From Elusimicrobiota bacterium (GTDB lineage: Bacteria > Elusimicrobiota > Elusimicrobia > UBA1565 > JACRDR01), in contig JAPLKK010000017.1 in assembly GCA_026388115.1 (NCBI GenBank), positions 15,667 to 79,666 of the forward strand: DNA of 64,000 bases, given 5' to 3'. The notes under the pieces are model-generated. The model ran no database searches. It was not told the DNA's origin and worked only from the letters and a program-made list of their open reading frames with translations. Positions 2 through 52,392 of the stretch are shown here, in pieces; within the stretch, counting starts at the first letter, position 1; the number at the start of each line of letters is the position of its first letter. The position numbers were made by a program, and so were the translations under genes.

Positions 2-3000
2 AACCCGAACGGCGGGTTCGTCACCGTCACGGGCTCGAGCCTCACGTCGCTGACCGCCTACAACAATAAGTACTTCGCCGGCGGCGCGGATGGGCGGGTC
101 TATGTGGCCACCGACGGCGTCACGTGGAGCGCCGCCAACGGCGGCGTGGCGTTCGCGACGACGCCGATCCAGACCCTGGCCGCGTTCGACGGAAGGCTGT
201 ACGCCGGCGACGCGACGGGCCGCCTGTACGTCAGCACCGAGGGCAGCGTCTGGATGGTGACGGAGAGCGGCTATCCGATCAGCGGAAGCATCTGGAGCCT
301 GGCGCCGTTCAACGGCAAGCTCTTCACCGCGGACAATATCCTGGCCGGCAATATCTACCAAGTCACGCCGGTCGCCGCCTCCTTCTCCGCCGGCGCGGGC
401 GACGGCACGACGTTGAGCCAGACGCTGAGCGCGACCAACCTCAACCTCGTCAACTCGACGAACACGGCCTCGTGCGCGGGCTTCATGCCCTGCGCCGCGA
501 CGAACCAGGTGATCTTCACGGCGAGCGACCTCGCCGGCAACGTCTTGCGCGCGGGTCCGTTCGCGATCCAGGTGGACGCGACGACGCTGCTCGCGATCTC
601 GACGCCGATCTTCCCGGCCAACGGCGCCTACGTGAACGTCCAGCCGAACTTCGACTGGATCGCTCCCAGCACGACCACGGTCGCCGGCTTGCCGCCGAAC
701 ACGATCTATAACTTCCAGGTCGCGCAGGGCGACCCGTCCTTCCAGCCGATCAGCATCGTCATCAACGTCTCGACGCCGGCCGTGGTGACGAGCACGGTCG
801 TGCCGATGGCTTACGGCGCCTACGTCTCCACCTACGCCCTCGCCAACAACGCGACGTTCTACTGGCGCGTGCAGATCGTCAACGGCATCTACGGCTCCCA
901 GAGCGCGTGGTCTCAGACCTCCAGCTTCGTGACCGCCTTCACCCCGCCGGCGCAGACCGGCGCCTTCCTGAGTTGGGCCTCGACCGGCGGCTTCATCGCC
1001 GAGGTGCAGGTCAACGGCCTGGCCACGGGCGTGACCGCGCAGGTCTCCGTGCAGGATCCGATGGCCGGCCTGGTCGTCTCGACGAACGTGCTGGCCTTCG
1101 CCGGCAACGGCCACGACTTCGCGGGCGGGACCGGCGCGTTCGGCGTCATTTATTCCACGAACTCGGGCCAGACCTGGGTGGACGCCTCGACCGTGACCGT
1201 GGCTAACGGCGGCTACGCGATCGTCGCCTCGAACCTGCGCGCGCTGACCGTGTTCAACAACGCGCTCTATGTCGCCGACGGCAACGGCAGGGTCTACTCG
1301 AGCCCCGACGGCGTGAGCTGGGGCGCGACCAACGGAGGCGCGACCGTCGGCGCCGGCGCCATCCGCGCCATGGCGGTCTTCAACGGTCGTCTGTTCGCGG
1401 GAGACAACACCGGGCGGATCTGGGCGAACAACGGGGTCTCGTGGAGCCAGTCCAACAACAGCCAGGTGGTCGGCACCGGGATCGCGGCCATGACGGTCTT
1501 CAACGGCAACCTGTACGCCGGCGACGGCTCCAGCCCCGGCCGGCTGTACGTGAGCACCGACGGCAACTCCTGGAGGATGGTCCAGGCGGGCATCGGGCCC
1601 TTGGGCACCAGCGGCATCCAGTCCTTGGCCGCGTTCAACGGCCGGCTCTTCGTCGGCGAGCAGGGCATCAGCGCCGCCGCCAGGATATTCTCCTCGGTGG
1701 ACGGCAGCACCTGGCCGTCGAACGCGGTGGCCTCGCTGGGCGCCGTCAACACCAACATCGGCTCGCTGGTCGCGTTCAACAACAAGCTCATCGCCGGCGA
1801 CCAGGGGAACCAGAAGGTGTACGTGAGCACCGACGGCAACTTGTGGAACGCCGGCGTCATGCTCGCGCCCACGGCCAGCAACATCAACGCCCTCACCGTC
1901 TTCAACGGCAAGCTGTACGCCGGGGATTCGCTCGGCCGCCTGTACGTGAGCACCGAGGCGAGCACCTGGCTCGTGACCAACGGCAGCTTCCCGATCGCCG
2001 CCGCCGGCGCCGGCATCCAAGCCTTGGTGCCGTTCAACGGCAAGCTGTACGCGGCCGACAGCGCCGGCTTCGTGTATCAGATGACGCCGACCAGCATGAC
2101 GCTCTCGGGCGCCGACGGCTCGACCGCCTCCCAGGTCCTCGCCGCCAACGCGATGAACCTCGCCAACTCGAGCAACACCCAGACCTGCAACGGTGTCTGG
2201 CCCTGCGGCGCGACCAATCAGGTCCTGTTCACCGTCGTCGATCGCGCGGGCAACGTGGCCAAGTTCGGCCCGTACGCCGTCCAGGTGGACGCGAACACCG
2301 GCCTGGCCGTCTCGGCGCCAAGCCTCCCGGCCAACGGCGCCTACGTGACCACCGGCACCGTGAACTTCGACTGGACCGGCCCGAGCACGGTGACCTTGAG
2401 CGGCCTGCCGGCGGGGACCTCGTACTTCCTGCAGGTGTCGAGGAACGACCCGTCGTTCGCCGGCAACATCGTCGTGGCGATCACCACGCAGGCCGTTCCG
2501 ATCGTGAGCACGACGATGCCCACGGCCTTCGGCGCCTATTACTCGACCTATACGTTGGCCAACAACGCGACCTACTACTGGCGTGTCGCGACGATCAACG
2601 GTACCTACGGCACGGTGAGCCCCTTCTCGCAGACCTACAGCTTCGTGACCGACGTCGCGCTGCCCGTCAGCTCGGGCCCGTTCACGAGCATGGCCCCGGG
2701 CGGAGCGGTGGGCGAGTCCCAGATCAACACGCTGATCGCGAACGTCACGGCCCAGATCGCGCTGTCGCAGGCGGTCAGCGGCTTGGCCGTCTCCACCGGC
2801 GCCGTGGCCTTCGCGGGCGACGGGCACAACTTCCCGGGCGTCACCTCCGGCTTCGGCGTGATGTACTCGACCAACGCGGGACAGACGTGGATCGACTCGT
2901 CGCAGGTCACGGTCGCCAGCGGCGGGATTTCGCTCGGCGGCTACGCCTTGCGCGCCTTCGCGGTGTTCCAGGGCCAGCTGTACGCCGCCGACGCTAACGG

Positions 3001-6000
3001 CAACGTCTTCTTCAGCCCCGACGGCCTGAACTGGAGCGCCTCCAACGCCGCGCTCGGCAAGCCCGTCGGGAACCAAGGTTCGGGCGGTCCGCTCCGCGGC
3101 TTTGCGCTATTCAATGGCAAGCTCTACGTCGCGGACAACAACGCGGCCGGCAGGGTGTACGTCAGCGTGGACGGCCAGAACTGGACGACGAGCAACGGCG
3201 GCAACCCGGTCGGCTCGGTCATCAACGCGATGACCGTCTTCAACGGCCGCCTGTTCGCGTCCGACCCCATTACCAGCCGCGTGTACGTGAGCACCGACGG
3301 GAACATCTGGAGCACCGTACAGGGAGGCAACGCCATTGGCGCCGGCGGCATGATGTCGTTGGGGGTGTTCAACGGCAGAATCTACGCCGGTGACGGGGGC
3401 AACCCGGCCAAGGTCTGGGCCTCGATGGATGGGAGTACCTGGTCAGCCATGAACAGCGGAGCGCCTCTGCCGGGCGCGGTCAAGATTGAGTCGCTGGCCG
3501 TGTTCAACAACAAGCTCATCGCCGCGGACAGCAACAATGGAAAGATCTGGGTCAGCGCGGACGGCAACTCGTGGAGCGCCGCCGTGCAGGCCGGCGGCAA
3601 TGGGATCGCGTCGTTGGCCGTCTTCAACGGGAAGCTGTACGCCGGCGACGGGACGGGCCGGGTGTACGTGAGCACCGAGGCGAGCACCTGGCTGACCGTC
3701 AACGGCGGCTTCGCCGTCGGAGCGAGCACGTTCTACGCCCTGGTGCCCTTCAACGGCAGGCTGTACGCCGGCGACGCCGGCGGCAAGGCCTATCAGATCA
3801 CGCCGGTGACCGCGACGCTCACGGGCGCCGACGGCTCGACGGCGCCGCAGACGCTCACGGCTTTGGGCCTCAGCCTCCTCACCTCGACGAGCGCCAGCAC
3901 CTGCGGCGCCGGGACGGTCTGGCCTTGCGGCGCGACGAACCAGGTGCTGTTCACGGCCAGCGACCTCGCGGGTCGGGCGACGAAGCTCGGGCCCTTCGCG
4001 ATCCTCGTGGACACCCAGACCTCGGGCGGACTCATGGTGTCCACGCCGGCCCTGCCCCTCAACGGGGCCTTCATCAACGTCCAGCCGAACTTCACCTGGA
4101 TCGGCCCGAGCACCCCCACCTTGGCCGGCCTTCCCGCCGGCTCGTCCTATTACCTGCAGGTCTCGGTCAACGACCCGGCCTTCGCGCCCGCCAACATCGC
4201 CATCGCGATCACGACGCCCTCGGTGGTGATGAGCACCGTCGCGCCGACCGGCGCGGGCGCCTATATCTCCACCTTCACGCTGGCCAACAACGCGACCTAT
4301 TACTGGCGCGTGGCGACGATCAACGGCGTGGTGGGCACGCCCGGCCCGTGGTCCGCGACCTACAGCCTCGTGACCGACTTCGTGCCTCCGGTGATGGCCG
4401 GCACGTTCAGGACGCTGAACGCCGCCCAAACGACCCTCGGAGAACTGCAGATCAACAGTCTGGGCAGCGGCGTGACCGCTCAGATCAACGTCCAGGATCT
4501 GGCCAGCGGTCTCGCCGTGTCCACGAGCGTCCTGCTCTTCGCCGGAGACGGCCATGAAGGCCCCGACGTGGTCGGCGGCTTCGGCGTCATGTATTCCACC
4601 AACGCCGGCAAGACCTGGATCGACTTCACGCTCGCCGGCTCCTCCGTCGGCTCCACCGCCTTGTGGGCCGTGACGGCCTTGAACGGCAAGCTGTACGCCG
4701 CCGACAATACCGACTTCGTGTGGGTCAGCACCGACGGCGTCAACTGGAGCAAGACGAATTCCGGAAACAGCAACCTGCCCGTGGGCCTGACCAGCAGCGG
4801 CGGTTCGGCCTTCGCGCCGCTGCGGGCTCTGGTGGCGTTCAACGGCCAATTGTTCACCTCCGACATCACCGGTCGGGTCGATGTCAGCGCGGACGGCGAC
4901 AACTGGATGGCCTACGGCTCCCAGGTGGCCCAGAGCGCGATCCGGGCCATGACCGTGTTCAACGGCCGCCTGTACGCCGGCGACTCGACCGCCCCCGGCC
5001 GGGTCTATATGAGCACCGACGGGGTCAGCAGCTGGAAGGCGGCCGGTCCCGCCGTCGCGCCGCTGCAGACGGCGGGCGTGCTCGCCATGGCCGCGTTCAA
5101 CGGACGGCTCTTCGTCGGCGACGCTCAGGGCAAAGTGTACGTCTCGGTGGACGGCAGCACGTTCACGCTCGGCAACGGCGGCAGCCCGCTGAACACCCTC
5201 AACTCGCCGATCTTCAGCTTCGCCGCCTACAACAACAAGTTCTACGCCGGCGACGGCCTCGGCAAGATCTACGTCAGCAGCGACAGCGGCTCCTCGTGGA
5301 ACGGGACCAACGGCAACGGCGCGACAGGCCTTCCCGTTTCCAGCGGCGCGGCGATCCAGGCCATGATCGCGTTCGACGGCAAGCTGTACGCGGGAGACGC
5401 GGGCGGTCGCGTCTACGTCAGCACCGAAGGCAGCCAATGGCTGGTCGCGAACAGCAGCTTCCCGGTGGGCGTCAGCATCGGCGGCTTCGCCCCGCTGAAC
5501 GGAACGCTTTACGCCGTGGACAATCTCAGCAACTCGGTGTACCGGCTGTCGCCGGTCGCGCCGACGCTGACGGGGACGGACGGCACCACCGGCGCGCAGA
5601 CCCTGAGCGGCACCAGTCTCAACCTGGTGAACTCGCTCGCCTTCACCTACTGCCTGGGCGCCATGCCTTGCAACGCGGTCGACCAGGTGATCTTCACCGC
5701 CACCGACCGCGCCGGCAACGTGTTGAGGGTCGGTCCTTACGCGGTGCAGGTGGACGCGACGATGCCTCTGGCGACCCCCGCGCCGAGCTTCCCGGCCAAC
5801 GGCGCCTATGCGAACGTCCAGCCGAACTTCAACTGGTTCGGTCCGAGCACCGGGGTCATCGCGGGCCTGCCGGCCGGGAGCTCGTACTATCTGCAGGTGT
5901 CCAACGACCCGGCCTTCCAGGCATCGAATCTCGTGGTGAGCGTCTCGACGCCGGCGGTGGTCCTCAGCACCAACCTCCCGACCGGGGCCGGCGCCTATCT

Positions 6001-8968
6001 GTCGACCTACACGTTCACCGACAGCACCACGTACTACTGGCGCGTGGCCATGGTGAACGGCGCCTTCGGCTCCTACAGCCCCTGGTCCTCCACCTTCAGC
6101 TTCGTCACCGACTTGGCCCCGGCCTTGCAGGCATCGATGTTCACGAGCATCGTCAACGGCCAGAGCCAGCCGGAGAGCCAGCTGACGGCCGTGATCTCGG
6201 GGGCGACCGCGCAGCTCACGATCCAGGACCCGGTCAGCGGCCTCGCCATCTCCACGAGCGCCTTCGCGAGCGCAGGCGACGGCCGTTCGGCGCAGGGCGT
6301 CACCGCCGGCTTCGGCGTCATCTATTCCACCAACGGGGGTCAGAATTGGATCGACTTCTCGACCTTCGTGGTGGTGAACGCCGGCCAGCCGATCGTCGGG
6401 GCGCAGAGCCTGCGCACGTTGGCCGTCTTCGGGAACAAGCTGTACGCGGCCGACGGATCCAGCGGCAAGGTATGGCGGAGCCCCGACGGCTTCAATTGGA
6501 GCGCCGCCAACGGCAACAACCCGGTGGGCGCCGCCTTGCGCTCTTTCGCGCTCTTCAACGGCAGGATCTTCGCGGGCGACAACAACGGCAAGGTCTACGT
6601 CAGCACCACGGGCGACACTTGGAGCGCGTCCAACGCGAACGCCGCCGTCGGCGCCTCCATCGGGCCGCTCGGGGTGTTCAACGGCCGGTTGTACGCCGGC
6701 GACGTGTCGAACGGCCGCGTCTATATCAGCACCTCGGGCGACACCTGGAGCGCGACGCTGGGTGGGACAGCGGTCGCCGCGGCGCCGAGCAACGGCATCT
6801 GGTCCTTGGGCTCCTTCAACGGCCGGCTGTACGCCGGCGAGGGCGGGGGCAGCGCCAAGATCTACTACACCGCCGACGGCAGCACTTGGTTCCCGAGCAA
6901 CAACAACGCGGTGGTCGGCTCCTCCATCACCGCCTTGATCGCCCACTCCGGCCGGATGTACGCGGCCGACGGCAATTGGGGCAAGATCTACATGACCACG
7001 GACGGCAACGCCTGGGTTCCGGCCAACGGCGGCGTGACGCTGACGGTCTCGAGCCCGTCGGTGCAGAGCCTGGCCTCTTTCGACGGCAAGCTGTACGCCT
7101 CGGATCCCTCGGGGCGCGTCTACGTGAGCACCGAGGGCAGCACGTTCCTCGCGATCAACAGCAGCGCGCCGATCTCCGCCAGCAGCAATACGGCCCTGGC
7201 GGCCTTCAACGGCAAGCTGTACCTCTCCGGCGCGGACAACCGGGTGTACCAGATCACGCCGGTGACGGCCACGTGGCTGGGCGGAGGGGACGGCACGACC
7301 CTCGCCCAGACCTTGCTGGGCAGGAGCCTCATGCTCGTGACCTCGAGCAACCCCACCGTCTGCGGCGGGAGCTGGCCTTGCGGCGCGTCGAACCAGGTGA
7401 TCTTCACGGTCGCCAATCTGGCCGGCAGCGTCGCGAGGTTCGGCCCGTTCACGGTCCTGGTGGACACGCTGACCGCCGTCGCCATCTCGACGCCCTCGTT
7501 GCCCGCCAACGGCGGGTACGTGAGCCTGCAGCCCAACAACTTCACCTGGATCGGCCCGAGCACCGGGATCGTCTCCGGCCTGCTCGGCGGCTCGGCCTTC
7601 TCCATGCAGGTCTCGGCGAACGACCCGGCCTTCGCGCCCGGCAACGTCGTGATCAGCATCTCGACGCCGGCCGTCGTCGTGAGCACGACCTTGCCGACGA
7701 CCTCCGGGGCGTATCTCTCGACGTTCACCTTGACGGTCAACACGACCTACTACTGGCGCGTGACGACGACGAACGGGCTGTTCGGCGCCTCCGGTCCGTG
7801 GTCGCAGATCTACAGCTTCGTCGCGGCCTCGACGCCGCCCGCGCTGGCCGGGGCCTTCGTCACCGTGACCTCGAGCGGCGGGCTCCTGCCCGAGGGCGCG
7901 GTCAACGGCCTGGCCATCGGCACCACCGACCAGATCGCGAGCCTGGGCACCGGGGTGACCGCGCAGATCGTCCTGCAAGCCGGCAGCGCGGGCCTCGCCG
8001 TCTCCACCTCCGCGCTCGCCTTCTCGGGCGACGGGCACGACAGCCCGGCCGTCACCGGGGCCTGGGGCGTGACCTACTCGTCGAACGCCGGCCAGAGGTG
8101 GGTGGACTACTCGAAAGCAGCGGTCGTACAACAGAACTTCGGCATCGCGTTCTCCGCGATGGCCGCGTTCGCCGGCAACCTCTTCGTGGCCGACGCGGGC
8201 AGCGGCAGGGTCTACTACTATAACCACGTCAGCAACGTTTGGGACTGGTGCAACCACGGCAGCCCGATCAACGGCGCCGCCTCCCAGCTGCGCGCCTTCG
8301 TGAACTTCAGCAACCGGCTCTACGTGGGAGACGGCAACGGCGGCGTCTTCTCGCTCTCGGCTGGCGACCCGACTTGCGGGGGCTCCTGGACCCAATCGGT
8401 CAGCACGATCGGCGTATCGGTGCGGGCGATGGCGGCGTTCAACGGCAGGCTGTTCGCCGGCGATGGGGCCACCGGCAGGATCTACGTCAGCACCGACGGC
8501 CTCACCTGGCCCTGGAGCGCGGTCCAGGCCGGCGGCCAGGTCCTGCAGATGAACAACGTGCAGACCCTCGCCGTCTTCAACGGCCGCATCTTCGCCGGCG
8601 ACGCCTGGGGCAAGATCTATTCCTCCGTCGACGGCAGCACCTGGACCACGGCCAACGGCGGCGCGCCCGTGAGCGGCTCGACGATCACCGTCCTCACGGT
8701 CTATAACAACAAGTTCTACGCCGCCGACTCGACCGGGAAGGTGTACTCGAGCTTCAACGGCACCGCGGGGAGCGGCGCCGTGCAGGTGACGACGGGGACG
8801 AACATCGCCGTCCTGTCCTTCGCCGTCCTCAACGGCAAGCTGTACGCCGGGGAAGCGGCGCCGCCATCGCCGTCAGCAGCGTCGTCGCCCTGTCGCCGTA
8901 CAACGGCAAGCTGTACCTCGCCGACGCGAAGAGCATCTACCAGTACGCTCCGGTGCCCGGCACGATGA
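2..8968 (+). CDS. Giant cell-surface repeat protein, 5' portion. The gene start lies upstream of the window and the reading frame is open from base 2. It is interrupted by a frame change at about 8850-8870 and continues in the 8953..37614 ORF.
   Basis: ORF 104..8968 in the track. Frame 2 is open from the first window codon and already reads the repeat pattern (NPNGGFVTVTGSSLTSLTAYNNKYFAGGADGRVYVATDGVTW). Five complete roughly 1.7-kb supermodules are present, each with blades such as A.AVFNGKLYAGD..GRVYVSTDG.TW carrying the Asp-box S-x-D-G-x-T-W. Confidence 0.85.
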   Translation, partial: NPNGGFVTVTGSSLTSLTAYNNKYFAGGADGRVYVATDGVTWSAANGGVAFATTPIQTLAAFDGRLYAGDATGRLYVSTEGSVWMVTESGYPISGSIWSLAPFNGKLFTADNILAGNIYQVTPVAASFSAGAGDGTTLSQTLSATNLNLVNSTNTASCAGFMPCAATNQVIFTASDLAGNVLRAGPFAIQVDATTLLAISTPIFPANGAYVNVQPNFDWIAPSTTTVAGLPPNTIYNFQVAQGDPSFQPISIVINVSTPAVVTSTVVPMAYGAYVSTYALANNATFYWRVQIVNGIYGSQSAWSQTSSFVTAFTPPAQTGAFLSWASTGGFIAEVQVNGLATGVTAQVSVQDPMAGLVVSTNVLAFAGNGHDFAGGTGAFGVIYSTNSGQTWVDASTVTVANGGYAIVASNLRALTVFNNALYVADGNGRVYSSPDGVSWGATNGGATVGAGAIRAMAVFNGRLFAGDNTGRIWANNGVSWSQSNNSQVVGTGIAAMTVFNGNLYAGDGSSPGRLYVSTDGNSWRMVQAGIGPLGTSGIQSLAAFNGRLFVGEQGISAAARIFSSVDGSTWPSNAVASLGAVNTNIGSLVAFNNKLIAGDQGNQKVYVSTDGNLWNAGVMLAPTASNINALTVFNGKLYAGDSLGRLYVSTEASTWLVTNGSFPIAAAGAGIQALVPFNGKLYAADSAGFVYQMTPTSMTLSGADGSTASQVLAANAMNLANSSNTQTCNGVWPCGATNQVLFTVVDRAGNVAKFGPYAVQVDANTGLAVSAPSLPANGAYVTTGTVNFDWTGPSTVTLSGLPAGTSYFLQVSRNDPSFAGNIVVAITTQAVPIVSTTMPTAFGAYYSTYTLANNATYYWRVATINGTYGTVSPFSQTYSFVTDVALPVSSGPFTSMAPGGAVGESQINTLIANVTAQIALSQAVSGLAVSTGAVAFAGDGHNFPGVTSGFGVMYSTNAGQTWIDSSQVTVASGGISLGGYALRAFAVFQGQLYAADANGNVFFSPDGLNWSASNAALGKPVGNQGSGGPLRGFALFNGKLYVADNNAAGRVYVSVDGQNWTTSNGGNPVGSVINAMTVFNGRLFASDPITSRVYVSTDGNIWSTVQGGNAIGAGGMMSLGVFNGRIYAGDGGNPAKVWASMDGSTWSAMNSGAPLPGAVKIESLAVFNNKLIAADSNNGKIWVSADGNSWSAAVQAGGNGIASLAVFNGKLYAGDGTGRVYVSTEASTWLTVNGGFAVGASTFYALVPFNGRLYAGDAGGKAYQITPVTATLTGADGSTAPQTLTALGLSLLTSTSASTCGAGTVWPCGATNQVLFTASDLAGRATKLGPFAILVDTQTSGGLMVSTPALPLNGAFINVQPNFTWIGPSTPTLAGLPAGSSYYLQVSVNDPAFAPANIAIAITTPSVVMSTVAPTGAGAYISTFTLANNATYYWRVATINGVVGTPGPWSATYSLVTDFVPPVMAGTFRTLNAAQTTLGELQINSLGSGVTAQINVQDLASGLAVSTSVLLFAGDGHEGPDVVGGFGVMYSTNAGKTWIDFTLAGSSVGSTALWAVTALNGKLYAADNTDFVWVSTDGVNWSKTNSGNSNLPVGLTSSGGSAFAPLRALVAFNGQLFTSDITGRVDVSADGDNWMAYGSQVAQSAIRAMTVFNGRLYAGDSTAPGRVYMSTDGVSSWKAAGPAVAPLQTAGVLAMAAFNGRLFVGDAQGKVYVSVDGSTFTLGNGGSPLNTLNSPIFSFAAYNNKFYAGDGLGKIYVSSDSGSSWNGTNGNGATGLPVSSGAAIQAMIAFDGKLYAGDAGGRVYVSTEGSQWLVANSSFPVGVSIGGFAPLNGTLYAVDNLSNSVYRLSPVAPTLTGTDGTTGAQTLSGTSLNLVNSLAFTYCLGAMPCNAVDQVIFTATDRAGNVLRVGPYAVQVDATMPLATPAPSFPANGAYANVQPNFNWFGPSTGVIAGLPAGSSYYLQVSNDPAFQASNLVVSVSTPAVVLSTNLPTGAGAYLSTYTFTDSTTYYWRVAMVNGAFGSYSPWSSTFSFVTDLAPALQASMFTSIVNGQSQPESQLTAVISGATAQLTIQDPVSGLAISTSAFASAGDGRSAQGVTAGFGVIYSTNGGQNWIDFSTFVVVNAGQPIVGAQSLRTLAVFGNKLYAADGSSGKVWRSPDGFNWSAANGNNPVGAALRSFALFNGRIFAGDNNGKVYVSTTGDTWSASNANAAVGASIGPLGVFNGRLYAGDVSNGRVYISTSGDTWSATLGGTAVAAAPSNGIWSLGSFNGRLYAGEGGGSAKIYYTADGSTWFPSNNNAVVGSSITALIAHSGRMYAADGNWGKIYMTTDGNAWVPANGGVTLTVSSPSVQSLASFDGKLYASDPSGRVYVSTEGSTFLAINSSAPISASSNTALAAFNGKLYLSGADNRVYQITPVTATWLGGGDGTTLAQTLLGRSLMLVTSSNPTVCGGSWPCGASNQVIFTVANLAGSVARFGPFTVLVDTLTAVAISTPSLPANGGYVSLQPNNFTWIGPSTGIVSGLLGGSAFSMQVSANDPAFAPGNVVISISTPAVVVSTTLPTTSGAYLSTFTLTVNTTYYWRVTTTNGLFGASGPWSQIYSFVAASTPPALAGAFVTVTSSGGLLPEGAVNGLAIGTTDQIASLGTGVTAQIVLQAGSAGLAVSTSALAFSGDGHDSPAVTGAWGVTYSSNAGQRWVDYSKAAVVQQNFGIAFSAMAAFAGNLFVADAGSGRVYYYNHVSNVWDWCNHGSPINGAASQLRAFVNFSNRLYVGDGNGGVFSLSAGDPTCGGSWTQSVSTIGVSVRAMAAFNGRLFAGDGATGRIYVSTDGLTWPWSAVQAGGQVLQMNNVQTLAVFNGRIFAGDAWGKIYSSVDGSTWTTANGGAPVSGSTITVLTVYNNKFYAADSTGKVYSSFNGTAGSGAVQVTTGTNIAVLSFAVLNGKLYAGEAAPPSPSAASSPCRRTTASCTSPTRRASTSTLRCPAR

Positions 8969-11900
8969 CCGGCTCCGACGGGACCCTGGCCGCGCAGACG
9001 CTGACCATGACCGGCCTGAACCTCGCCAACTCCAGCAATACGGTGGTGTGCGGCGGGTTCGCTCCCTGCGGCGCCACCAACCAGGTGATCTTTACCGCCA
9101 GCGATCTGGCCGGCAACGTCGTGAAGCTCGGGCCCTACTCGATCCTGCTCGACGCGACCACCGCGGTCGCCTACTCGACGCCGGCCGCGCCGGGCCTGGC
9201 CGGCTTCGTCAACGTCCAGCCCAACTTCAACTGGGTGGCGCCGAGCACGCCGATCGCGGCGGCCTTGCCTCCGTCGAGCGCCTACATCCTGCAGGTCTCG
9301 AACAACGACCCCGGCTTCTCGAACGCGAACCTCGTCATCAACATCTCGACGCCGATCAGCGGCGTCGGGGTGAGCCTGAGCACGGCCGTGTCGCCGCCCT
9401 TGTCGGCGTACGTGTCCAGCTTCACGCTGACCAACAACACGACCTATTATTGGCGCGTCGTCACCCTCAACGGCGGCTTCGGCTGGTATGGGCCGTACTC
9501 CTCCACCTTCAGCTTCGTGACCGACTTCAGCGCGCCCACGCAGAACGGCGTCTTCACGACGCTCAGCCCGACGGGAGCGACGCTCACCGAGGCGCAGGTC
9601 AACACGCCGGCGACCTCGTCGGTGACCGCGCAGATCGGCGTTCAGGACACGATCAGCGGCTTGGCGGTCTCCAGCACCGCCGTGGCCTTCGCGGGCGACG
9701 GTCACAACTACACCGGCGCGATGGGCGGCTACGGCGTGGTCTACTCCACCAACGCCGGCCAAAGCTGGATCGACTTCTCGTCGATCACGGCGTCGAGGAG
9801 ATATGACGGCACGGTCACCTTCGGCAGCCAGCTCTACAGCTTCGCCGTTTACAAGGGAGCGCTGTTCGTCTCGGACGCGAACACCGGCTATCTCTACTAC
9901 AGCCCCGACGGCAACATCTGGACGCAGGTGGGCGCGTCCCAGATCGTCCCCGGCGGCTTGTCGAAGCCCCTGGCCGTGTTCAACGGCCGGCTCTTCGCCG
10001 GCGACGGCGCCAACGGCATGATCTACTGGACCGCCGGCGACACCAGCTCATGGAGCACCGCCAACGGCGGGGTGCCGGTCGGCCAAACGATCCGAGCCCT
10101 GGCCCAGTTCAGCGACCGCCTCGTCGCCGCGGACGGGACCAACGGCCACATCTACGTCAGTACGACGGGCGACACCTGGGCGACGTCGCAGGGCGGGCAG
10201 GCGGTGGGCATCGGGGCCATGCCGGCGCTGGCGGCCTATAACGGCCAGCTGTACGCCGGAGACTCGAAGGGCAACATCTACTTCTCGGCCGACGCCAGCA
10301 CCTGGACGAAGTCGAACAACGGCCTCGTCGTGGGCTCGTCCATCTCGGCCTTCGCCGCCTACAACGGCCGCCTGTTCGCGGCCGACGGCCTCAACGGAAG
10401 AGTCTACGCCACGAGCGACGGGGTCAGCTGGAGCACAGTCAACGGAGGGGTCCAGGTCACGACGGCGCCGACCATCGGCGTCGCGGCCCTCGCCTCCTTC
10501 AACGGCAGGCTGTACGCCTCCGCCGTCACCGGCACCGTATCGGTCAGCACCGCGGGCGGCAGCTGGTGGATGTTGAACAACGGCTATCCCATCAGCCCGA
10601 CGGGCGGCGCGTTCTGGGCTCTCGCTCCATTCAACGGGAACCTCGTCGCGGCCGATGCCGGCAGCGTGTACGTGATCGCGCCGGTGAGCGCGACGTTGGG
10701 AGGCGCGGACGGGACGGGCGCGGTCCAGACGCTGACGGCCACGGGCCTGGCGCTTGTGAACTCGACGCGCTCGGTCGTCTGCGGGGGCGTCGCGCCCTGT
10801 TCCGCCACCGACCAGGTGATCTTCACGGCGACGGATCGCGCCGGCAACGCGAAGCCGTTCGGTCCCTTCGCGGTGCTGGTGGACACCCTGACGCAGACCC
10901 TCGTCTCGACGCCGACCTTCCCGGCCAACGGCGCCTGGGTGAACATCCAGCCCAATTTCGACTGGATCGGGCCGAGCACCACGCCGGCCTCGGGCTTGCC
11001 GCCGGGCTCCTCTTATTACTTGCAGGTTTCCAACAACGACCCGGCCTTCGCGCCGGGGAACATCGTCATCAGCGTGTCGACCCAAGAGTACCTCTCGGCG
11101 ACGGGGACGTCGGTGCTGGCGAGCACGTCGTTGCCGACCGCGCAGAGCGGCTACATCTCGAGCTTCACGCTCACCAACGCGACGACCTATTACTGGCACG
11201 TGCTCCTGGGCAACAGCGTCCTCGGCACCAAGGGGCCATGGTCGCAGACGTACAGCTTTGTGACCGATTTCGCCGGACCCGCGCAGGCCGGCGCCTTCCT
11301 GAGCTCTTCGCCGGTCCTCGGCTGGATCGGCGAGACCCAGGTGAACCCGCTGTCGAACGGCGTCACCGTCCAGGTCGGCGTCCAGGATCTGCTCAGCGGC
11401 ATGGCCGTCTCGACGGGCTCGCTGCCGTTCGCGGGCGACGGGCACGATTACGCCGGCGTCACCGCGGGCTACGGCGTGATCTATTCGACCAGCGCGGGAC
11501 AGACCTGGATCGATTTCTCCACCGTGACCGCCGCCGCCGTCTACACCGCCGGCAACGCGGTCACCCCGAGGCTGCTCGCCCTGGCGGTATCCTCGGGCAC
11601 CATCTACGCGGCCTACGCCGACAACAATCTTCCTAAGTTCTACGTCTACCACAGCGCGGATGGAGCCGTCTGGACCGCCAACAACACCCCGTCGTTCTCC
11701 TACGCGCCCCAGGCGCTTGTGCCCTTCAACGGGAAGATCTTCGCCGGCTTCGCCGACGGCAGCATCTATTACTCGCTCAATGCCGGCACCAATTTCTCCC
11801 AGGCGAGACCCGGGCTCACCGGCGGTCTGGCCCCCATCGGCTCGAACATCAATGCGCTGGTCGTCTTCAACGGAAAGCTGTATGCCGGCGACAACAACGG

Positions 11901-28400: not shown

Positions 28401-31400
28401 CGGCACCTTCACCGCGCTGTCGGGCACCGCGGAAACGGGCGTGCTGTCGCTCGCGTACTTCGGCGGCTACCTGTACGCGGGCACCCAGGGGACGGCGCGG
28501 GTGTACCGCTCTCCCGACGGCCGCAACTGGTACCCGGTCTACGCCTTCGGCGGCAACAGCGCGGTGCCGAGCCTCGCGGTCTTCAACGGCCAGCTGTACG
28601 CCGGCACCAGCGGCGGCATGTCCGGAGGCCGCGTGTTCAGCTCGCCGGACGGGACGCAATGGTCGTCGGCCTATGCCCCGGCGGGCGTCGCGAGCATCAG
28701 TGCTCTGGCGGCCTACGACGGCCGCGTCTACGCGACGCTGGATGACGGCTGGATCGCGGCCTCGACCAACGGCGTCAACTGGGCGAAGATGGCGCTGTTG
28801 CCCAACGGAGCGGCCACCGCGCTGACCGTGTTCAAGGGCAAGCTGTACGCGACTTGCGGCGGCGCCTATCTATGCTCGAGCTACGGCGGGACGACTTGGT
28901 CGTCGACCCAGCGCTTCAGCAGCTTCACGGTGCTCGACGCCCTGGCCTCCTTCAACGGCCGTCTCTACGTCGGCGGCGACGGCGGCATCGCGTCCGCCCC
29001 CGACGACCTGACCTGGCCGTGGCGCTTCGAAGTCTGGACGGGGGGCGAGACGGTCGCGAGCTTCGGCACCGTCGGTGGGCGGCTGTACGCGGCCACGGCG
29101 CAGAGCGCGGCGCTGTATGCGGTCATCGACAGCGGCCATTGGGCGCAGGTCTTGTCCGGGACCGGCGAGTCCGACATCGCCGCCTTGCAGGCCTTCAACG
29201 GCAAGCTGTACGCCGGCACGCTGCCCCACGGCTTCGTCCTCGAGCTGAGCCCCTTGGCGGCGCTCATGCCCGGCGGCGACGGCGCCACCGGCGTGCAGTC
29301 CTTGCGCGCCTCCGGCTTGACGCTGACCCAGTCCACGACGACGGCCCTGTGCGGCGGCGCCGTTCCCTGCGGGGCGACCAATGAGGTGCGCTTCACGGCG
29401 GCGAACATGGCGGGCAACGTCCGCTTCGCCGGGCCCTACGCGGTGCTCATCGACACCGTCATCGCCACGGCCCGGCCGATGCTGGTCGAGCCGGTCGTCG
29501 AGGGCTTCTCGCTGAAGGTGCCCGAGTTCCGCTGGACGGTGAGCACCGCGGTCTCGATGGGCAACCTCACGGGCTTCGAGTTCCAGCTGGCCAACGCCCC
29601 CGACTTCATCGCGCTGCTGTGGGCGCAGCGCACGATGGACCGGGCCTTGACGTTGCCCTTCTATCTCGGCGAGGGCGGCAAGTATTACTGGCGCGTGCGC
29701 GCCTTCGACGTGGCCGGCACGACCTCCACCTTCTCCGACGTGTCGACCGTGTTCATCGACACCTTCCCGCCGATCGGCAACAGCTTCGCGGCGTTCACCT
29801 CGACCGGACTGGCCGTGCCGGAAGGCACTCTCATCGACCTGGCCAGCGGCGTAACGGCCCAGCTGACGGTGCAGGACACGGTGAGCGGCCTGCGGCTCAG
29901 CGGGCCCGGGCCGGCGGCCGTCATCCCGGGGACGGCGCTGTTGTGGCGCTTCGACGAGGGGACCTACTCCACGGCCACGTCGAACTCGGCGTGGCCCGGG
30001 CAGAAGGTCTATGACAGCGGGCCTTGGGGCAGCACGGGCGCGGTCGCCGGCTTGCCGGTCTGGGTCAACGGCCGCTTCAACAAGGCCCTGCGCTTCTCGG
30101 GCACGGGAGCGGACTGGGTGTACGGCATCTGGCCCTTCCTGTCGCTGAGCAGCCCGACGGTCGAAGCCTGGATCAACACGCTGAGCACCAGCGGCTACGT
30201 CCTCTCCTCGCAGGGCGGCGCCTACTCGGTGTTGATCGGCTCCGCCGGCTTGAGCGCCGGCGACATCGGCGCCATCTTCAACACGGTGCTCGTGGACTGC
30301 GGCCGTCGCGTCGACGACGGGGGCTGGCACCATGTGGCCGCGACGGACGACGGCGCGGACCTGTCATTCTACCTCGACGGGGCGCTGTGCGGATCCACGC
30401 CGGCGCCGGCGAGCTTGCCCGCGCCGGGCACCTTGGACGTCGGCGTCAACATCGACGGCAGCGGGGCCTTCAGCGGGGTCATCGACGAGGTGCGCATCAT
30501 CGACCACCCGCTCGGCGCGGCGGAGATACTGCGCGACGCCACCTTCGGCGTCCCCTACGCGGCGGCGTTCTCCACCAACGCCGGCCGCAGCTTCCAGCTC
30601 GTGACCTCCACCTATCCCGTCACATCGACGTCGCCGTACGTGTCGGTGAGCGGCGCCGACGGCGCGACGAGCCCGCAGGCCTTGCAGATCTGCAATCTGA
30701 CCCTCACCCAGTCGACGAACACGAAGACCGGCGCCCAGGGGACCAACCAGATGGTCTTCGTGGCGAGCGACCGGTCGGGCAACCTCGCGAAGTTCGGACC
30801 CTTCACGATCCTGGTGGACTCGCTGATCGGCCAGCCGACCGCCTACTACCCGGCGCCGGGGAGCTGGGTCAACAGGCTCTCGCCCGCGTTGACCTGGGCC
30901 GAGGCGAACGCGCTGCCGCGCCACGAGGTCCTGCTGTCGCGCGACAACTTCCTGACCCTGGTGATGGACTCCACCACCGCCAACAGCGACATCCTCCTTT
31001 CGGGCTATCCGACCAGGCTCACGCTGGCGCAGGGCGGCACCTACCAATGGAAGGTGAGGGCGACGGGCTTGACCGGCAATAAGTCGCTGTACTCGGCGGC
31101 GAACCAGTTCACCGTCGACGCCGTCGCGCCGACGGCCGGAGGCTTCGGGACCTACAGCTCGACCGGCGCCTTCCTCGACCAGACGCAGTGGAGCAACCGG
31201 TACGGCGCCAACACCGTCCAGGCGCGCTTCCAAGACACCGGGCCGAGCGGCCTGGCCATGTCCACCGGCTCCTTCGGCGTGATGTACTCGACGACCGCGG
31301 GGCTCAATTGGGTGGACTGGTCCCAGCTCGTGTCGACGCTCGCCGTCCAGGGCGCGACGGCGGTTTCCGCTCTCGCGTCCTTCGACGGCTCGCTCTACGC

Positions 31401-34400
31401 GGGCTCCTCGGGCAACGGGCAGGTCGTGACGAGCGCGGACGGCGTGTCCTGGACGCCGGCCTTCGGGTTCCCGGGCCAGAGCGGCGTCTTGAGCCTGCAG
31501 CCCTTCGCGGGCCAGCTTTTCGCCGGCGTCTCACCCGGCCATCAGGTCTGGGCCTCGGCCGACGGGGCCAGTTGGGCCCAGGCGTTCGACACCGGCGGGG
31601 GCAGCGCGGTCGAGAGCATGGTCCTGTTCGACGGCAAGCTGTTCATGGGCACCGACAACAACGCTTCGATCTACTCCTCGGTGGACGGCTCGAGCTTCAC
31701 GCTGGCCGCCGCCATCGGCGGCCAGACGGACGTCCTGGCCTTCGCGGTCTTCGACGGCCACCTCTACGCCGGGACCGCGGGCGGCAACGGGGCGCAGCTG
31801 TGGCGCAGCCCCGACGGCGCGCGCTGGCAGCTGGCCTGGCCGCCGGCCGGCAACACCACCGGCGAGACGCGCGTGCGCAGCCTCGCCGTCTTCAACGGCA
31901 AGCTTTACATGGGCACGGCGCCCGGCGGGCTGATCCTTGCCTCCGTCGACGGCCTGACCTGGCCCGGCACGGCGCTCTCGGGCACCGGCGCGACCGACGT
32001 CCCGGCGATGACGTCGACCAACGGCAAGCTGTACGCCTCCCTGGCGGCGCCCGGCGGCATGCTGTACGCCACCGCCGACGGCGTGAACTGGCGGCTCACC
32101 CTGAGCGGGACTTCCGACAACGGCTTCGCGAGCCTGACCTCCTTCAACGGCGGGCTGTACGCCGGCGGGAGATCGAGCGGCTGGGTGTACGCGATGCCGC
32201 CCGTCGTCTCCGCTTTCACGGGCGTGGACGGCTCGATCGGCGTGGAGACGATGACGGCGACGGGCCTCGCCCTCACGCAATCCGCCGACGGTACGAGATG
32301 CTCGGGCGGCGTCGGGTCGTGCGCGGCGACGAACCAGGTCCTGTTCTCGGCGAGCGACCGCGCGGGCAACGCGGTGTCCTACGGGCCCTACAGCGTGCTC
32401 GTCGATTCGTCGGTCCCGCAGCCGGTCATCGCTGCCCTGACCGCGACCTCCACGGACTCGGTCCGGGTGGACCTGTACCCGGTGCCCGACCTGCTGTCCG
32501 GGACGTCCGACTACCAGTACTACCTCTCGGGCGTGTCCGACTTCTCGGACGCCGTGACGACCACGCCCTTCGTGACGACCTCGAGCTACACCTTCCGCGG
32601 CCTCGGCGAGGCGACGACCTATTATATCCGCGCCGTCGCCCGCGACAGGGTGGGCAGCGTCTCGCCGTACTCCGTCCTCGCCGCCACGATGACCGACGGC
32701 GTGCTGTACTCGTCGTACACCGATATCACCTCGTCTTCGGCGTACCAGTCCACCGACCAGCCGATGCTGCGTCTGATGCTGTGGACCGAGGTGGGGCGGA
32801 CCGCCCTCCTGAACCGGCTCGAGGTCCACATGGACACCGCCGCCAACCCGGCGGCGCCCTTGTCGTCGCCCCTGGGGGCGGGCAACGACGCTGATATCCT
32901 CATCGCCAAGCTGTACGCCGACGCCCAGGGCTTGGGCGTCTTCGACTCGCACGCGGTGCAGTTGGGCGAGGCGCCGATGTCGAACGGCCGCGCGATAATC
33001 GACCTGAGCGGCAACGTCCAGGCGATCCAGTCCTCCACGCGGACGTACTTCGTCGTGTACAAGGTCGCCGACGCGGCGGCGATCAACGACCGGCTGGACG
33101 CGGTGCTCCTCGACGACAACGCCCTCGGCTTCGCGAACTCCTACCGGGCCCTGGCGGCGTACTCCGTGTCCTCGCTCAACACGTATCCGGTCATCTCCAG
33201 CGGCACGGTGGTCGTCGACGGCCCCAACAACCTGTACGTCGACGCCCTGTCGGTCGCCCCGCAGACCGCGGCGCCGGGCCAGTCGGGGATCCCGATGATG
33301 CGGCTGCGCATGAACACCGACCACGGCACGAGCGCGCTCGACCACGTGGTCTTCGATGTGACCGGCTCCGCGGTGGCGTCGACGGACGTGGCCTCCATCG
33401 CGATCTATCGCGACGACAACGGCGACGGCGTTTACGAGCCCGGCATCGACGGGCTGGTCACGTCGGGCAACGACCTCTTCAGCAACGCCGTGGCGAGTGT
33501 GGCCTTTGTGACCTCACTCCATGTGCCCATCTCCTCGCGCACGATCAACTCGGGCACCCAGGACTATTTCGTCCTGATCAACATGGCGCTCGGCGCCCAG
33601 CCGAGCGACCTGGTCGGCGTCTCGGTGACCGCCTCGAGCTCCGTCGTGACGGTGGGGCCGGACACGCCGATCCTGTCGGCGTCGCCGCTCTCCTCCAGCC
33701 AGGTCCGGCTGTCTTTGCCCAACAGGCTCTATCTGAGGACCAGCTCGGTGGCCCCGCCCTCGGTCAAGCAGGGACAGAAGTACGCGGTGCTCATGACCTC
33801 CATGAACGTCGTCTGCGGCCTGCCCGCCTGCGCCAACCCGGGCGCGACCACGGTGACCGGCCTCCAGGTCAACCGCACAGGCACCGCGCAGGACGGCGAC
33901 GTGGCCGCCGTCGAGGTCTGGAAGAGCGCCAATCCGGGCTCGCCCTTCAACCCGTCGGCCGACTATCCGCTCGGCACCGGGGCGTTCGTCGGCGGCACCT
34001 CCTTCGTCGCCTTCTCGACGCAGACGCTCACGAGCCCGACGACGTCGGTGTTCTTCATCGTCTATACCTTGAGCGTCAACGCCAACGCGGGCGCCACCGT
34101 CGGCGCGAGCCTGACCAACAACACCTACGTCACCGTGACGAACCCCGACACGACGGTGACGGGCGCCTTCCCGATGCCGACGGTCTCGACGACTTCGTTG
34201 ATCGCCCAGACCGTGAACAAGCTCCTGGTCACCAACTCCCAGGACGTCACCGTCGCGGCCCAGTTCCTCCAGGCGCGCGCCGACCTGCCGCTGCTGCGGC
34301 TCGACGTGCACGCCGACCAGAACACCGTCTCGTGGACGGGCCTGACGCTCCGGAGCACCGGCACCGCGATGGACTCGGATATCGCGGCCGTCAAGGTCTA

Positions 34401-37400
34401 TGCGGACGCCAACGGCAACGGACAGCTCGACGTGGGCACCGATACGCTGGTCACCAGCGGCAACGACCGGTTCACCAGCGGGTTGGTCACCGTGGGCTTC
34501 ACGCAGTCCCAGGTCATCGCCGCGAGCACGCAGACGTTCTTCGTCTCTGTGGACATTCCGGCCACAGCCATCCCCGGCGATACCTTCGGCGTGGTCGCGC
34601 TCTCGAGCGGCAGCCTCATCGTCGTCGCGCCGAACACGGTCTCGACGACGAGCGTCTCCTTCCCGCTCAAGACGACGCCCGTGCCGATCCAGCAGTATCC
34701 CAACATCATCACCGCTTCGACGGCCTCTTTGGCCCCGGCCGCGATCGACCCGTCGCAGACCAACGTGGGGATGCTGGCCCTCACGCTCAAGACCAACGTT
34801 TCGAACGCGCGCTGGTCGAAGCTGCTCCTCGATCGCGTCGGCGGCCTCGACGCCGACGTCAAGGAGGTCCGCGTCTATTACGACGCCAACAACGTGGGCT
34901 CATGGGACTCGAGGAACGCGAACGCGTATCTTCTCGTCACCTCGACGGGCCAGAGCTTCGGGCTCAAGGGCATCCAGGGTCAGGTGAGCTTGAGCATCGC
35001 CCTGCCGCCGTCGCAGCCGGTGAACTCGACGCCGAAGACGTTCTATATCGTCATCGACATAGCGAACGGGGCCTTGCCGTCGGACTCGATCGCGGTGCGC
35101 ATCCTCAACGCGAACTACCTCACGGTCGACGCCCCCAACACCGTCGCCGCCTTCTCGGCGCAGTCCGGCGCGTCCGTCGTGAACCAGCAGGCCGCGATGA
35201 TGACGGTCGTCGCCTCCACCGGCGTCCTGCCCGCCGTCGTGCGACAGGGCGACTTCAGCGTGCCGTTCGCGCGCTTCGATCTGCAGATGGACCGCTACAC
35301 CGCGCTGTGGACGAAGCTGACGGTCACCGAGGGAGGCACGGCGGCGGACGCCGACGTCAGCAAGGTCAGGCTGTATCTGGCCGCCAGCTCCAGCGAAACG
35401 ACGGTCCAGCCGTTCAGCGACCAGCAGGTGGCCGCGGGCACCTTCGTCTCGGGCCAGGTCATCCTGACCTTCCAGCTCCCGCAGGTCATCTTGTCGACGA
35501 GGACGTTGACGTACTTCCTGACGTACGACATCTCGCCGGTCGCGCAGGCCGGGGTGCTGGCCGGCGCCACGATGAGCGGCCCGGGCTCGTTCGTGCTGGC
35601 CGCGCCCAACGGCGTCAATCCCACCGGCTTCCCGATCCACTCGGGCCTGGCGCTGATCCAGCCGACGGTGACGGGCGTGCTGGCCAGCTTCCAGGACAAG
35701 GCTCCGGCGGGCCTGAAGCAGGGGGCCACCGCCCAGGTGATGATGAGCCTGACCCTTCAGACGACCTCCAACGAGGCCCTGTGGTCCTCGCTCGTCGTGC
35801 AAAAGACGGGCACCGCGCCGGACGCCGACATCCACGCGGTGCGCCTCTTCGTGGACGCCGACGGCAGCGGCGTCCTCAAGCCCGGAGACGCGGAGCTGAC
35901 CTCCGGCGCCGACCGCTTCATCAACGGCTCGGTGACGCTGGCGTTCAACACGCCGCAGGAGATCAGCCCGACGCCGAAGCGGTACCTGCTCGGTCTCGAC
36001 GTGGACCTCCACGCCTCGCCGACGGACACCGTGGGCCTGGCGATCCCGTCGCCCTCCTACTTCGGTCTCGTCGCGCCGAACTACGTCATCAACAGCGGAT
36101 TCCCGCTGCAGTCGTCGAGGATACCGGTCGCCAAGCTCCCGGATATCCTCGACGTGACCTTCACGGACCTGGCGCCGACGGGGGCCAACGAGGGCTCCGA
36201 AACGCTGATGGCGCGGTTGCGGCTGCGCGCCGAGCGCGACAACGCCGTCTTCACGAGCTTGCGCCTGCTCAAGATGGGCTCGTTGCCCGACGTGAATGTG
36301 ACGCAGGTGCGCCTGTATCTCGATGCGAACAACAACGGCGCGGTGGACCCGCAGGACGTGCTCGTGGCGACGGCCGCCTTCTCCAACGGCATGGTCGCGT
36401 TGAGCACGTCGAACGCGATCCTCACCTCGACGCAGACGTACCTGCTGACCTGCGTCCTCGACCCCGGCGCCGCGGTCGGCGCGACGCTGGGCTTGCGCGT
36501 GCCGGACAGCACCTACGTGGGCGCGGCCTTCCCGGACACCCTGTCGGCGCCGGCCTTGCCCTTCTCGACCATCCTCGTCAACGTGCTCGACGCCCGCACG
36601 CCGTCGAAGCCCGTGGTCACGGTGCCCGGCGGGTACTGGGCCGCCTTCGACAACCTGCCGTTCAGCTGGACCTCCCAGGTGGCGCTGGGCTCGATCATGG
36701 ACGTGCAGTACGCCGTCGGCACGGCTTCGACGATGACCGATGTCCTGGCTTGGCAGGACCTGCCGCCGTCGCAGGCGGACGTGACCATCGCCGGGCTCAA
36801 CCTGCAGAGCGGGATCACGTACTTCGTGCTCGTCCGGGCGATCAACGTCATCGGAGGCGTGACGTTCGTCAGCCCCATCGGCGTGTCGCAGGGAGTGCTC
36901 ATCGACTATCAGATCCCGCGGCCGCCCGTGCCCTTGGTCAGCGTGAGCGAAAACGCGGTGCGCATCGCCTGGCCGGCCGTGACGACGGCGGTCGACAGCT
37001 CGACGCTCCCGTCGGGGATCATGGGGTACCTGGTCCAATACCGCACGGGAGCGAGCCCCGTCTGGATCAACGCCAAGACCCAGCTGGCGGTCCCGTCGTC
37101 CATGGCCTTCGGCCCGGCGGCCGCGTGGGCCGCGCGCAAGGCGGCCCAGAACGGCGTCGCGCCGGCGGCGGTCGCGCTCTCGTCGGCGGATCTCATCACC
37201 AACACCAGCTACAATTTCGCTCCGCCGGCCGGCACGGTCTACCTTAAGGCGAGCGCGGTCAGCAACTCCGGACAGATCAGCGCGGACTCGCCGGTGCAGA
37301 AGGTCCAGGTCGGCGCCCTGCCGAAGGGCGGCATCACCAACGTCAGAAACTACCCGAACCCGTTCGACTCGCGCACCGGGGTGACGACGATCAACTTCAC

Positions 37401-37614: not shown

Positions 37615-37644
37615 CGTCCGAACCGGCCGCGCGCCTCGAGGCTC

Positions 37645-37727
37645 TTGACAGCGCAAGCAAGATCGAGCCCCAGTCAAGGCCGCAATCGATTTAAGCTGCA
37701 ACAACAACACCTTTTTTATTAAAAAAT
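37645..37727 (+). promoter_or_regulatory. Intergenic candidate promoter region for the downstream PorV-like operon. It has a TTGACA hexamer at 37645-37650 and an AT-rich tract ttttttattaaaaaat at 37712-37727.
   Basis: This is the only AT-rich stretch in about 38 kb. I do not see a convincing -10 at 17 bp from the TTGACA, so the exact promoter is uncertain. Confidence 0.3.
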
Positions 37728-37775
37728 CTCAGAATGTCTTCGTGATTAGGGGGGCTATCCCGTTAAACTTGTGGT

Positions 37776-41884: not shown

Positions 41885-41887
41885 GCC

Positions 41888-45478: not shown

Positions 45479-46222
45479 ATGGACCTCACCACAATCCTTG
45501 GCATCTTCGGTATCTTCGGCTTAGGCGCCGTCGTCTGGGTCACCGGCCAGGTCTCCTCCGCCTTCCTGAACGCGCACGGTCTGACCATGGTGATCGGCGG
45601 CGCCCTGGTCGCCATCCTCGTGAACACTCCCCTGCCGCTGTTCCTCGAGGCGCTGCGGGCTCTCTTCGTGCTGTTTCGGCGCGAGTCGGCGGGCGATCCG
45701 CGCGAGATCGTCCCCGTCCTGGTGACGGCGTCGCAGAACGTCCACGCGCGCGGCATCAACGCCCTGGCGGGCATGGACCCCGCGGTGGCCGGGGGGTTTT
45801 TGGCCCGCGCCGCGCAGATCGCGATGGAATTCAAGGACCCCGTCTACGTGAACGAGGTCCTCGGCGCGGAGTTGGCGCGCGAGAATGAGCATCACAACGA
45901 GATCGTGAACGTGTACCGGACGCTCAGCGTCCTCTTTCCGATGTTCGGCCTCATCGGCACTCTGTTCGGCATCGTGCACGTGCTGAAGAACCTCGGGACC
46001 GACCCCGGCGCCATCGGCCCGGCCATGGCCGTCGCCATCACCTCCGCCTTCTACGGCATCTCGTTCGCGAACCTCTTCGCCGTGCCGGTGGCGGGAAAGC
46101 TCCGCATCAAGTTCCGCCAGGAGCTGTTCGTCAAATCCGTGATCGCGGAGGCGGTGGTCGAGATGCTCAAGGGGACCGCACCGGTCCTCGTCGAGCGCCG
46201 CCTGGAGTCGGCCCTCTTGTAG
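45479..46222 (+). CDS. motA: MotA/PomA-family proton-channel stator subunit (4 TM).
   Basis: About 247 aa with TM1/TM2, a cytoplasmic loop, and TM3/TM4. The TM4 signature AMAVAITSAFYGISFANLFAVPVAGKLR is typical of MotA. The size matches PomA/MotA. Confidence 0.8.
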   Translation: MDLTTILGIFGIFGLGAVVWVTGQVSSAFLNAHGLTMVIGGALVAILVNTPLPLFLEALRALFVLFRRESAGDPREIVPVLVTASQNVHARGINALAGMDPAVAGGFLARAAQIAMEFKDPVYVNEVLGAELARENEHHNEIVNVYRTLSVLFPMFGLIGTLFGIVHVLKNLGTDPGAIGPAMAVAITSAFYGISFANLFAVPVAGKLRIKFRQELFVKSVIAEAVVEMLKGTAPVLVERRLESALL

Positions 46223-46237
46223 GGCGGGGCCGCGCCG

Positions 46238-51334: not shown

Positions 51335-52392
<1,058 letters not shown>

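Follow-up and report, generated by a model that had tools for sequence, protein, structure and literature searches.

The question raised by this locus is why a giant gene, open over tens of kilobases, changes its reading frame once in its interior. The gene lies in a stretch of 64,000 nucleotides (nt) of contig JAPLKK010000017.1 from an Elusimicrobiota bacterium, which is called the window here (G+C about 68%). All positions are in the numbering of this 64-kb window, and the features are on the (+) strand. The gene occupies 2–37614, and its coding sequence passes from frame 2 to frame 1 at 8853/8854. The break is not a chance feature. About 55 nt are missing from a propeller blade at this point, and a local error of assembly or consensus is the most likely cause of the gap. 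The sequence would have been dropped when the contig was built or processed, and the real organism would carry one continuous open reading frame (ORF).

The visible part of the gene is at least 37.6 kb, with at least 12,536 codons across both frames. It runs off the 5′ end of the window, and its N-terminus is upstream of the window. Frame 2 is open from position 2, reads ...NIAVLSFAVLNGKLYAGEAAPPSPSAASSPCRR... and ends at TGA 8966–8968. Frame 1 is preceded by a stop at 8704–8706, is open from 8707 to 37614 (TGA 37612–37614) and reads ...GSGAAIAVSSVVALSPYNGKLYLADAKSIYQYAPVPGTMTGSDGT. The overlap of the two frames is 260 nt (8707–8968). The original prediction had placed the stop of frame 2 at 8968 and the opening of frame 1 at about 8707, and its coordinates and translations match exactly. 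The parts of the gene and the sites around its break are as follows:

2 to 8853, (+) strand: upstream part of the giant gene in frame 2, about 2,950 codons, recognized by its open frame, its translation and a G+C content at third codon positions (GC3) of 0.94–0.98
8854 to 37614, (+) strand: downstream part of the giant gene in frame 1, 9,586 codons and a stop
8707 to 8853, (+) strand: stretch of frame 1 open by chance, with GC3 of 0.52 in frame 1 and no ATG, GTG or TTG before 8953
8830 to 8853, (+) strand: 24-nt exact repeat CAACGGCAAGCTGTACGCCGGGGA (codons of NGKLYAG), common to 1903–1926, from a scan for the longest exact matches
8853 to 8854, (+) strand: deletion junction between GCCGGGGA and AGCGGCGCC, about 55 nt (3n+1) missing, from alignments and blade spacing
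8854 to 8968, (+) strand: out-of-frame tail of the upstream ORF, 37 codons (AAPPSPSAASSPCRRTTASCTSPTRRASTSTLRCPAR) and TGA 8966–8968, non-coding in frame 2
8953 to 8967, (+) strand: first possible restart codons in frame 1, GTG 8953 and ATG 8965, the ATG overlapping the upstream stop as ATGA
37351 to 37599, (+) strand: C-terminal sorting domain of type A of the type IX secretion system (T9SS), Por_Secre_tail/FlgD-Ig-like (TIGR04183, Pfam FlgD_ig)

Nine other propeller-to-linker module ends are found in the gene, which is the comparison set that had been proposed for sizing the indel at the nucleotide level. The MAFFT alignment of module ends shows one gap of 53 + 2 = 55 nt, confined to the module ending near 9067. 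The spacing of the FNGKLYAG-like blade motif gives the same value. Its median is 126 nt, and adjacent blades are 114–159 nt apart, in multiples of 3. The interval from 8828 to 8899 is 71 nt, the sole true exception among the motif spacings of the gene (one false motif match, splitting a 132-nt interval, was set aside in this count), and 126 − 71 is 55 nt. The spread of the spacing between blades 6 and 7 permits a range of 52–64 nt. As 55 is 3n+1, coding continues in frame 1 instead of frame 2, and the upstream ORF stops 38 codons on.

GC3 in frame 2 stays at the level given above up to 8853, where GCCGGGGA ends. From 8854, where AGCGGCGCC begins, it is 0.95–0.97 in frame 1, and the other frames are at about 0.5–0.6. 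This flip falls exactly at 8853/8854 and indicates that the coding frame switches at the junction. Over 8854–8968, GC3 is 0.56 in frame 2 versus 0.97 in frame 1, and the out-of-frame peptide of this tail includes AAPPSPSAASSPCRR. Alignment, blade spacing and GC3 agree with the earlier proposal that a propeller blade has lost sequence out of frame, rather than suffered a point frameshift. The deletion had been put at 60–75 nt and not a multiple of three; the latter holds, while the alignment reduces the size to 55 nt.

The residues missing at the junction are about 18, roughly D-x-x-G-R-x-Y-V-S-T-E-G-x-x-W-x-x-x. Their loss had been recognized before, with a count of 20–25, which the alignment lowers to this number. 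The pattern D-x-x-G-[RK]-x-Y-V-S-x-x-G-x-x-W-x-x-x is seen between KLYAG and the last blade in all nine paralogous ends and in all 14 homologous ends, the latter from seven JGI metagenome contigs, and only the 8853 junction is without it. The AlphaFold model of an intact paralogous propeller (2792–3811) has seven blades, with a predicted local distance difference test (pLDDT) score of 84 and a predicted template modelling (pTM) score of 0.84. According to this model, the missing residues correspond to the predicted strands C (RVYV) and D (WLT) of blade 6 of the 7-bladed propeller, the two outer strands of that blade. With the model as query, a fold search matches nothing more specific than 7- and 8-bladed propellers of a generic kind (Ycf48 and WD40 proteins, for example).

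The 24-nt repeat of the left flank ends exactly at the junction. No longer repeat reaches the break, and this one lies on its left side only. On the right side there is no repeat beyond 10–13 nt anywhere in the window. The direct repeat GGGGA(A)GCGGCGCCG, at 8767 and 8849, was considered as a signature of slippage and rejected as a chance 10-mer match in GC-rich sequence.

The origin of the gap can be approached from two further deletions in the window:

39338 to 39339, (+) strand: second lesion, 17 nt (ATGGCCATCTTCATTTC) absent here and present in the Logan contig L001
51742 to 51743, (+) strand: third lesion, 92 nt missing in trpB (51331–52396), 31 codons and 2 nt, changing frame 1 to frame 2

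The Logan contigs used were assembled independently from the public reads of SRR25046533 and SRR20698641. L001 (SRR25046533_29640) matches the window over 29427–41940 with 0 mismatches and a single gap, the 17 nt at 39338. This loss deletes the TAA of a tetratricopeptide repeat (TPR) gene starting at 37776 together with the ATG of a 29-codon ORF, and fuses the two. It lies in an intergenic stop/start region of non-repetitive DNA, without microhomology. Four other Logan contigs from the two read sets are 100% identical to the window over 47456–51667, 52281–53496, 57052–61023 and 58594–64000. In total, the independent Logan assemblies cover about 25 kb with 0 mismatches, and the 17 nt are the sole difference.

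The third lesion splits the Pfam domain PALP, with positions 5–88 in one ORF and 126–294 in the other. TrpB homologues of 81–94% identity have 31 extra conserved residues at the break. Against L006, a relative's contig syntenic with the trp region of the window (94–95% nucleotide identity), the window is short of exactly 92 nt at 51742/51743, and the microhomology there is 2 nt. The DNA is non-repetitive here. The rest of the trpEGDCFBA operon is intact, and the other trp and aro genes look intact as well. The Logan contigs have a gap at 51668–52280, ending 75 nt before the lesion and resuming 540 nt after it, and do not cover it. A short-query protein search for an intact trpB allele of the same strain gave only matches of at most 62% identity, which are uninformative. 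Exact look-ups of the deletion-allele proteins (trpB, 346 aa; TPR, 544 aa) gave no record, and this is weak evidence as the collection evidently does not hold the source assembly; the intact neighbours of these two proteins are on record.

At the trpD/trpC boundary, around 49900, the window is 40 nt shorter than L006, and the C-terminus of TrpD is shortened (340 versus 353 aa). In contrast to the three suspect lesions, this is a real lineage difference, since the window and the Logan contig L005 are in agreement here.

Three out-of-frame deletions of 17, 55 and 92 nt are thus present within 64 kb, and those at 39338 and in trpB have 0–2 nt of microhomology. About 25 other genes of the window contain no stop codons or 1-nt frameshifts, and the giant gene shows no decay. 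This combination does not match what natural gene decay would leave. As L001 contains the 17 nt, reads of the same strain lack at least one lesion of this class. The giant gene is fully open on either side of its break (8.85 kb upstream and 28.8 kb downstream, GC3 about 0.95), which indicates that the lesion is either not real or extremely recent.

Errors of this kind have been published. A local assembly error had split a giant gene into two adjacent ORFs, and its correction gave a single gene of 74,983 aa (West-Roberts et al. 2023, bioRxiv 10.1101/2023.11.21.568195). One uncurated metagenome genome of 1.13 Mb contained 13 local assembly errors, or about one per 90 kb, and a repeat-rich gene held one of them (Chen et al. 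2020, PMC7111523). The case at 8853 resembles these in that adjacent giant ORFs make up one gene, and in that the loss is of tens of bases, out of frame and accompanied by other errors in the genome. The density, 3 per 64 kb here against 13 per 1.13 Mb, is of similar order and locally higher. The published errors were found from consensus without read support, whereas the error at 8853 is proposed from assembled sequence. By analogy, an artefactual origin is suggested for the 8853 lesion as for the trpB and 39338 lesions.

Homologues of the gene are contiguous. In the seven JGI contigs, the equivalent module ends lie within single ORFs of 2,788, 2,802, >3,651, 4,840, >4,933, 5,663 and >5,947 codons, so the split is not a family trait. 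This answers the earlier suggestion that contiguity in related genomes be checked. Frame breaks are seen elsewhere in the family. A 1-nt frameshift around position 12690 of L002 (ENA ERZ27256801 k141_1017554) divides the homologue there, with P0003 (939 aa) on one side and an ORF of at least 1,774 aa on the other. In the JGI contig L013 (7502–15910, 84% identity), the orthologue is intact, a single ORF of about 2,777 codons. The first and last residues of the NCBI protein P0001 look out-of-frame; a look-up of its contig gave no record.

Several points weigh against a local error at 8853. No independent contig of the same strain over 8853 was found in the protein, JGI, GTDB and metagenome scans, and the artefact is argued by analogy. 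A protein search with 700 aa across the break gave only relatives of at most 55% identity. A wobble-degenerate DNA pattern of the left flank had 0 matches in the JGI metagenomes, and the scan of GTDB species representatives for the junction gave only an irrelevant archaeal match, so these do not include the source genome. A second metagenome scan gave relatives of at most 46% identity, which are informative on contiguity and not on the 8853 allele. The trpB lesion falls in the Logan gap, so it is not independently contradicted, and the samples could truly be polymorphic for the 17 nt. Losing 55 nt without a long flanking repeat is atypical of de Bruijn-graph collapse. Finally, real frame breaks do occur in this gene family, as the 1-nt frameshift of L002 shows.

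A true mutation was among the three explanations offered originally. In the form of a very recent, genuine loss of 55 nt from the sequenced population, it is less likely than the local assembly error and ranks second. The result would be a null or truncated allele, either an incipient pseudogene or a loss-of-function variant of the strain. The upstream product would be exported without the sorting domain, and the downstream 9,586 codons would be untranslated or unexported. The loss is plainly present in the sequence, small deletions with low microhomology arise naturally, and giant repetitive surface genes are often dispensable and indel-prone. The 1-nt frameshift of L002, in the orthologue of a gene intact in L013, and the out-of-frame-looking ends of P0001 point in the same direction. 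However, the 28.8 kb downstream and the 8.85 kb upstream have no stops, full codon bias and no secondary decay. A genuine deletion also needs three simultaneous recent deletions in 64 kb, including the one in trpB and the contradicted one of 17 nt, with no other type of lesion. Like a frameshift-disrupted pseudogene, the locus has an out-of-frame internal deletion, a premature stop 38 codons on and no restart signals. It differs in the lack of secondary decay in 37 kb of flanking coding sequence, in the equally fresh lesion of trpB, a gene of an essential pathway, and in the presence of one lesion that is absent from an independent assembly. A single frame break is the only degenerative change in the 37.6 kb of the giant gene, and the extra stops, further frameshifts or loss of codon bias expected of a decaying gene are not seen. 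If real, the deletion would be an ordinary loss-of-function allele of a surface protein. A broader version is very improbable, in which the break is real and recurrent, and small out-of-frame indels switch off or split the propeller-repeat giant genes of Elusimicrobia as deletion-based on/off variation of a T9SS-type adhesin; the frame breaks of L002 and P0001 would be other instances of it. Repeat collapse had also been proposed, and in its classical form, where the assembler jumps between near-identical copies of a blade and drops the sequence between them, it is quite improbable. The gene is highly repetitive, and the left flank is the 24-nt exact repeat ending at the break. Yet 55 nt is not a multiple of the 126-nt blade or of the module period of about 1.7 kb, the right flank has no repeat above 10–13 nt in the window, and a 24-mer is below the k-mer sizes of final contigs. 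Moreover, the sister lesions, in trpB and in the intergenic stop/start region, are in non-repetitive DNA. What is lost is not a repeat unit, and strict collapse is therefore not supported, while an error at the level of assembly is retained in the form of the local error favoured here.

Two genuine genes, which had been thought to be recognizable by a ribosome-binding site and start after the break and a sorting signal before it, are very unlikely. The upstream ORF would end at TGA 8968, and translation would restart at ATG 8965 by ATGA coupling or at GTG 8953, giving two functional giant proteins. The ATGA overlap of stop and start is present, and both ORFs are long and intact. But this ATG is just the Met codon of a TMTG linker motif, and the TGA happens to be the first stop in the wrong frame. 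No Shine-Dalgarno motif was found upstream of GTG 8953 or ATG 8965, while motifs of the GGAG/GAGG/AGGA type precede about half of the well-supported genes of the window. The restart product (MTGSDGTLAAQ...) begins in the middle of a linker, and its N-terminus is not a signal peptide. The homologue P0003 and the ORF of L013 have a signal-peptide-like N-terminus, MKKAASALIFALAAVF..., right where the gene begins. The upstream product would close with a half blade and 37 out-of-frame residues, without a sorting domain. Neither half has both sorting signals, the only T9SS domain being that at 37351–37599, and the split is conserved in no homologue examined. The two-gene arrangement is thus not retained, with neither a ribosome-binding site after the break nor a sorting signal before it. 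It is scarcely conceivable that programmed −1 ribosomal frameshifting, or recoding of another kind, joins both frames into one protein. The frames overlap by 260 nt, and the change from frame 2 to frame 1 equals a −1 shift. In these respects, two overlapping frames with the downstream one at −1, the locus is similar to the programmed sites of dnaX and the transposases of IS elements. In contrast to those sites, it has no slippery heptamer, stimulatory structure or conservation, and part of a domain is missing. No X XXY YYZ heptamer is present in frame 2 over 8700–8970, where the sole homopolymers are three GGGG runs. The RNA of 8856–8975 has a minimum free energy of −40.2 kcal/mol, no better than shuffled sequences (mean −42.1; z = +0.56). 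Furthermore, GC3 switches exactly where about 18 conserved residues are physically absent, and a frame change at the equivalent site is seen in no homologue examined. The programmed frameshift of the original prediction is dropped, as the slippery heptamer and any unusual RNA structure are lacking, residues are missing and homologues are contiguous. Whether artefact or real deletion, the gap has no implications for recoding or new biology.

Should the gap be an artefact, annotation would have to join the two ORFs as one protein of about 12,550 residues and treat the contig as carrying uncorrected local errors. The trpB gene and the TPR gene at 39338 would be affected as well. Left uncorrected, such lesions would wrongly make the organism look like a tryptophan auxotroph and the giant gene look split.

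The giant gene is of more interest than its break. Its upstream part consists of five supermodules, each with Ig-like/fn3-like domains followed by a 7-bladed DUF6242 propeller (Pfam DUF6242, E = 9e-19). The downstream part contains further propeller supermodules and then Laminin_G_3, Ig_Rha78A_N and fn3 domains. Across both frames there are about 10 propeller supermodules in addition to the Laminin_G_3 and Ig regions. The Pfam domains are DUF6242 propellers, Ig domains similar to Ig_Rha78A_N, fn3 and PurAcPhosph_N, Laminin_G_3, and the terminal FlgD_ig/Por_Secre_tail. The last 83 residues match TIGR04183 with 28.8 bits, above the curated NCBIfam cut-off of 23 bits, and Pfam FlgD_ig matches the C-terminus with E = 2.3e-7. 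This is the single C-terminal sorting domain in the part of the gene within the window, and it is on the downstream fragment.

Based on these domains, the gene is predicted to encode an Elusimicrobia cell-surface protein of repeated supermodules ending in a T9SS type A sorting domain. In the databases, its nearest relatives are hypothetical or DUF6242 proteins from metagenome-assembled genomes (MAGs) of Elusimicrobia, mostly partial, at about 44–55% identity. The gene resembles the giant multi-repeat T9SS-type surface proteins, that is, the DUF6242 proteins of Elusimicrobia MAGs and the giant genes of Omnitrophota. The resemblance includes its size (>12,500 codons), the tandem supermodules of Ig-like domains and DUF6242 propellers, the Laminin_G_3 domains and the C-terminal Por_Secre_tail domain. 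It differs in the low identity to its nearest relatives, and its function is a predicted one.

Two other regions of the window can be mentioned. A single ORF of 824 codons at 39410–41884 combines HisKA and HATPase_c (residues 88–313), the C-terminal tip of FliF (454–501), and the middle and C domains of FliG (608–804). It is identical in an independent Logan contig and is an unusual fusion or remnant. MotA and MotB genes are at 45479–46936, and there are no other flagellar genes in the window. Relative to L006, the window has a 1.5-kb insertion at 54246–55782, with the DAHP synthase gene and aroA on its two sides. A Fic/DOC-DUF4172-HTH gene (54633–55739) lies within it. The insertion, with a G+C of 0.625 compared with about 0.70, is probably mobile and strain-specific.

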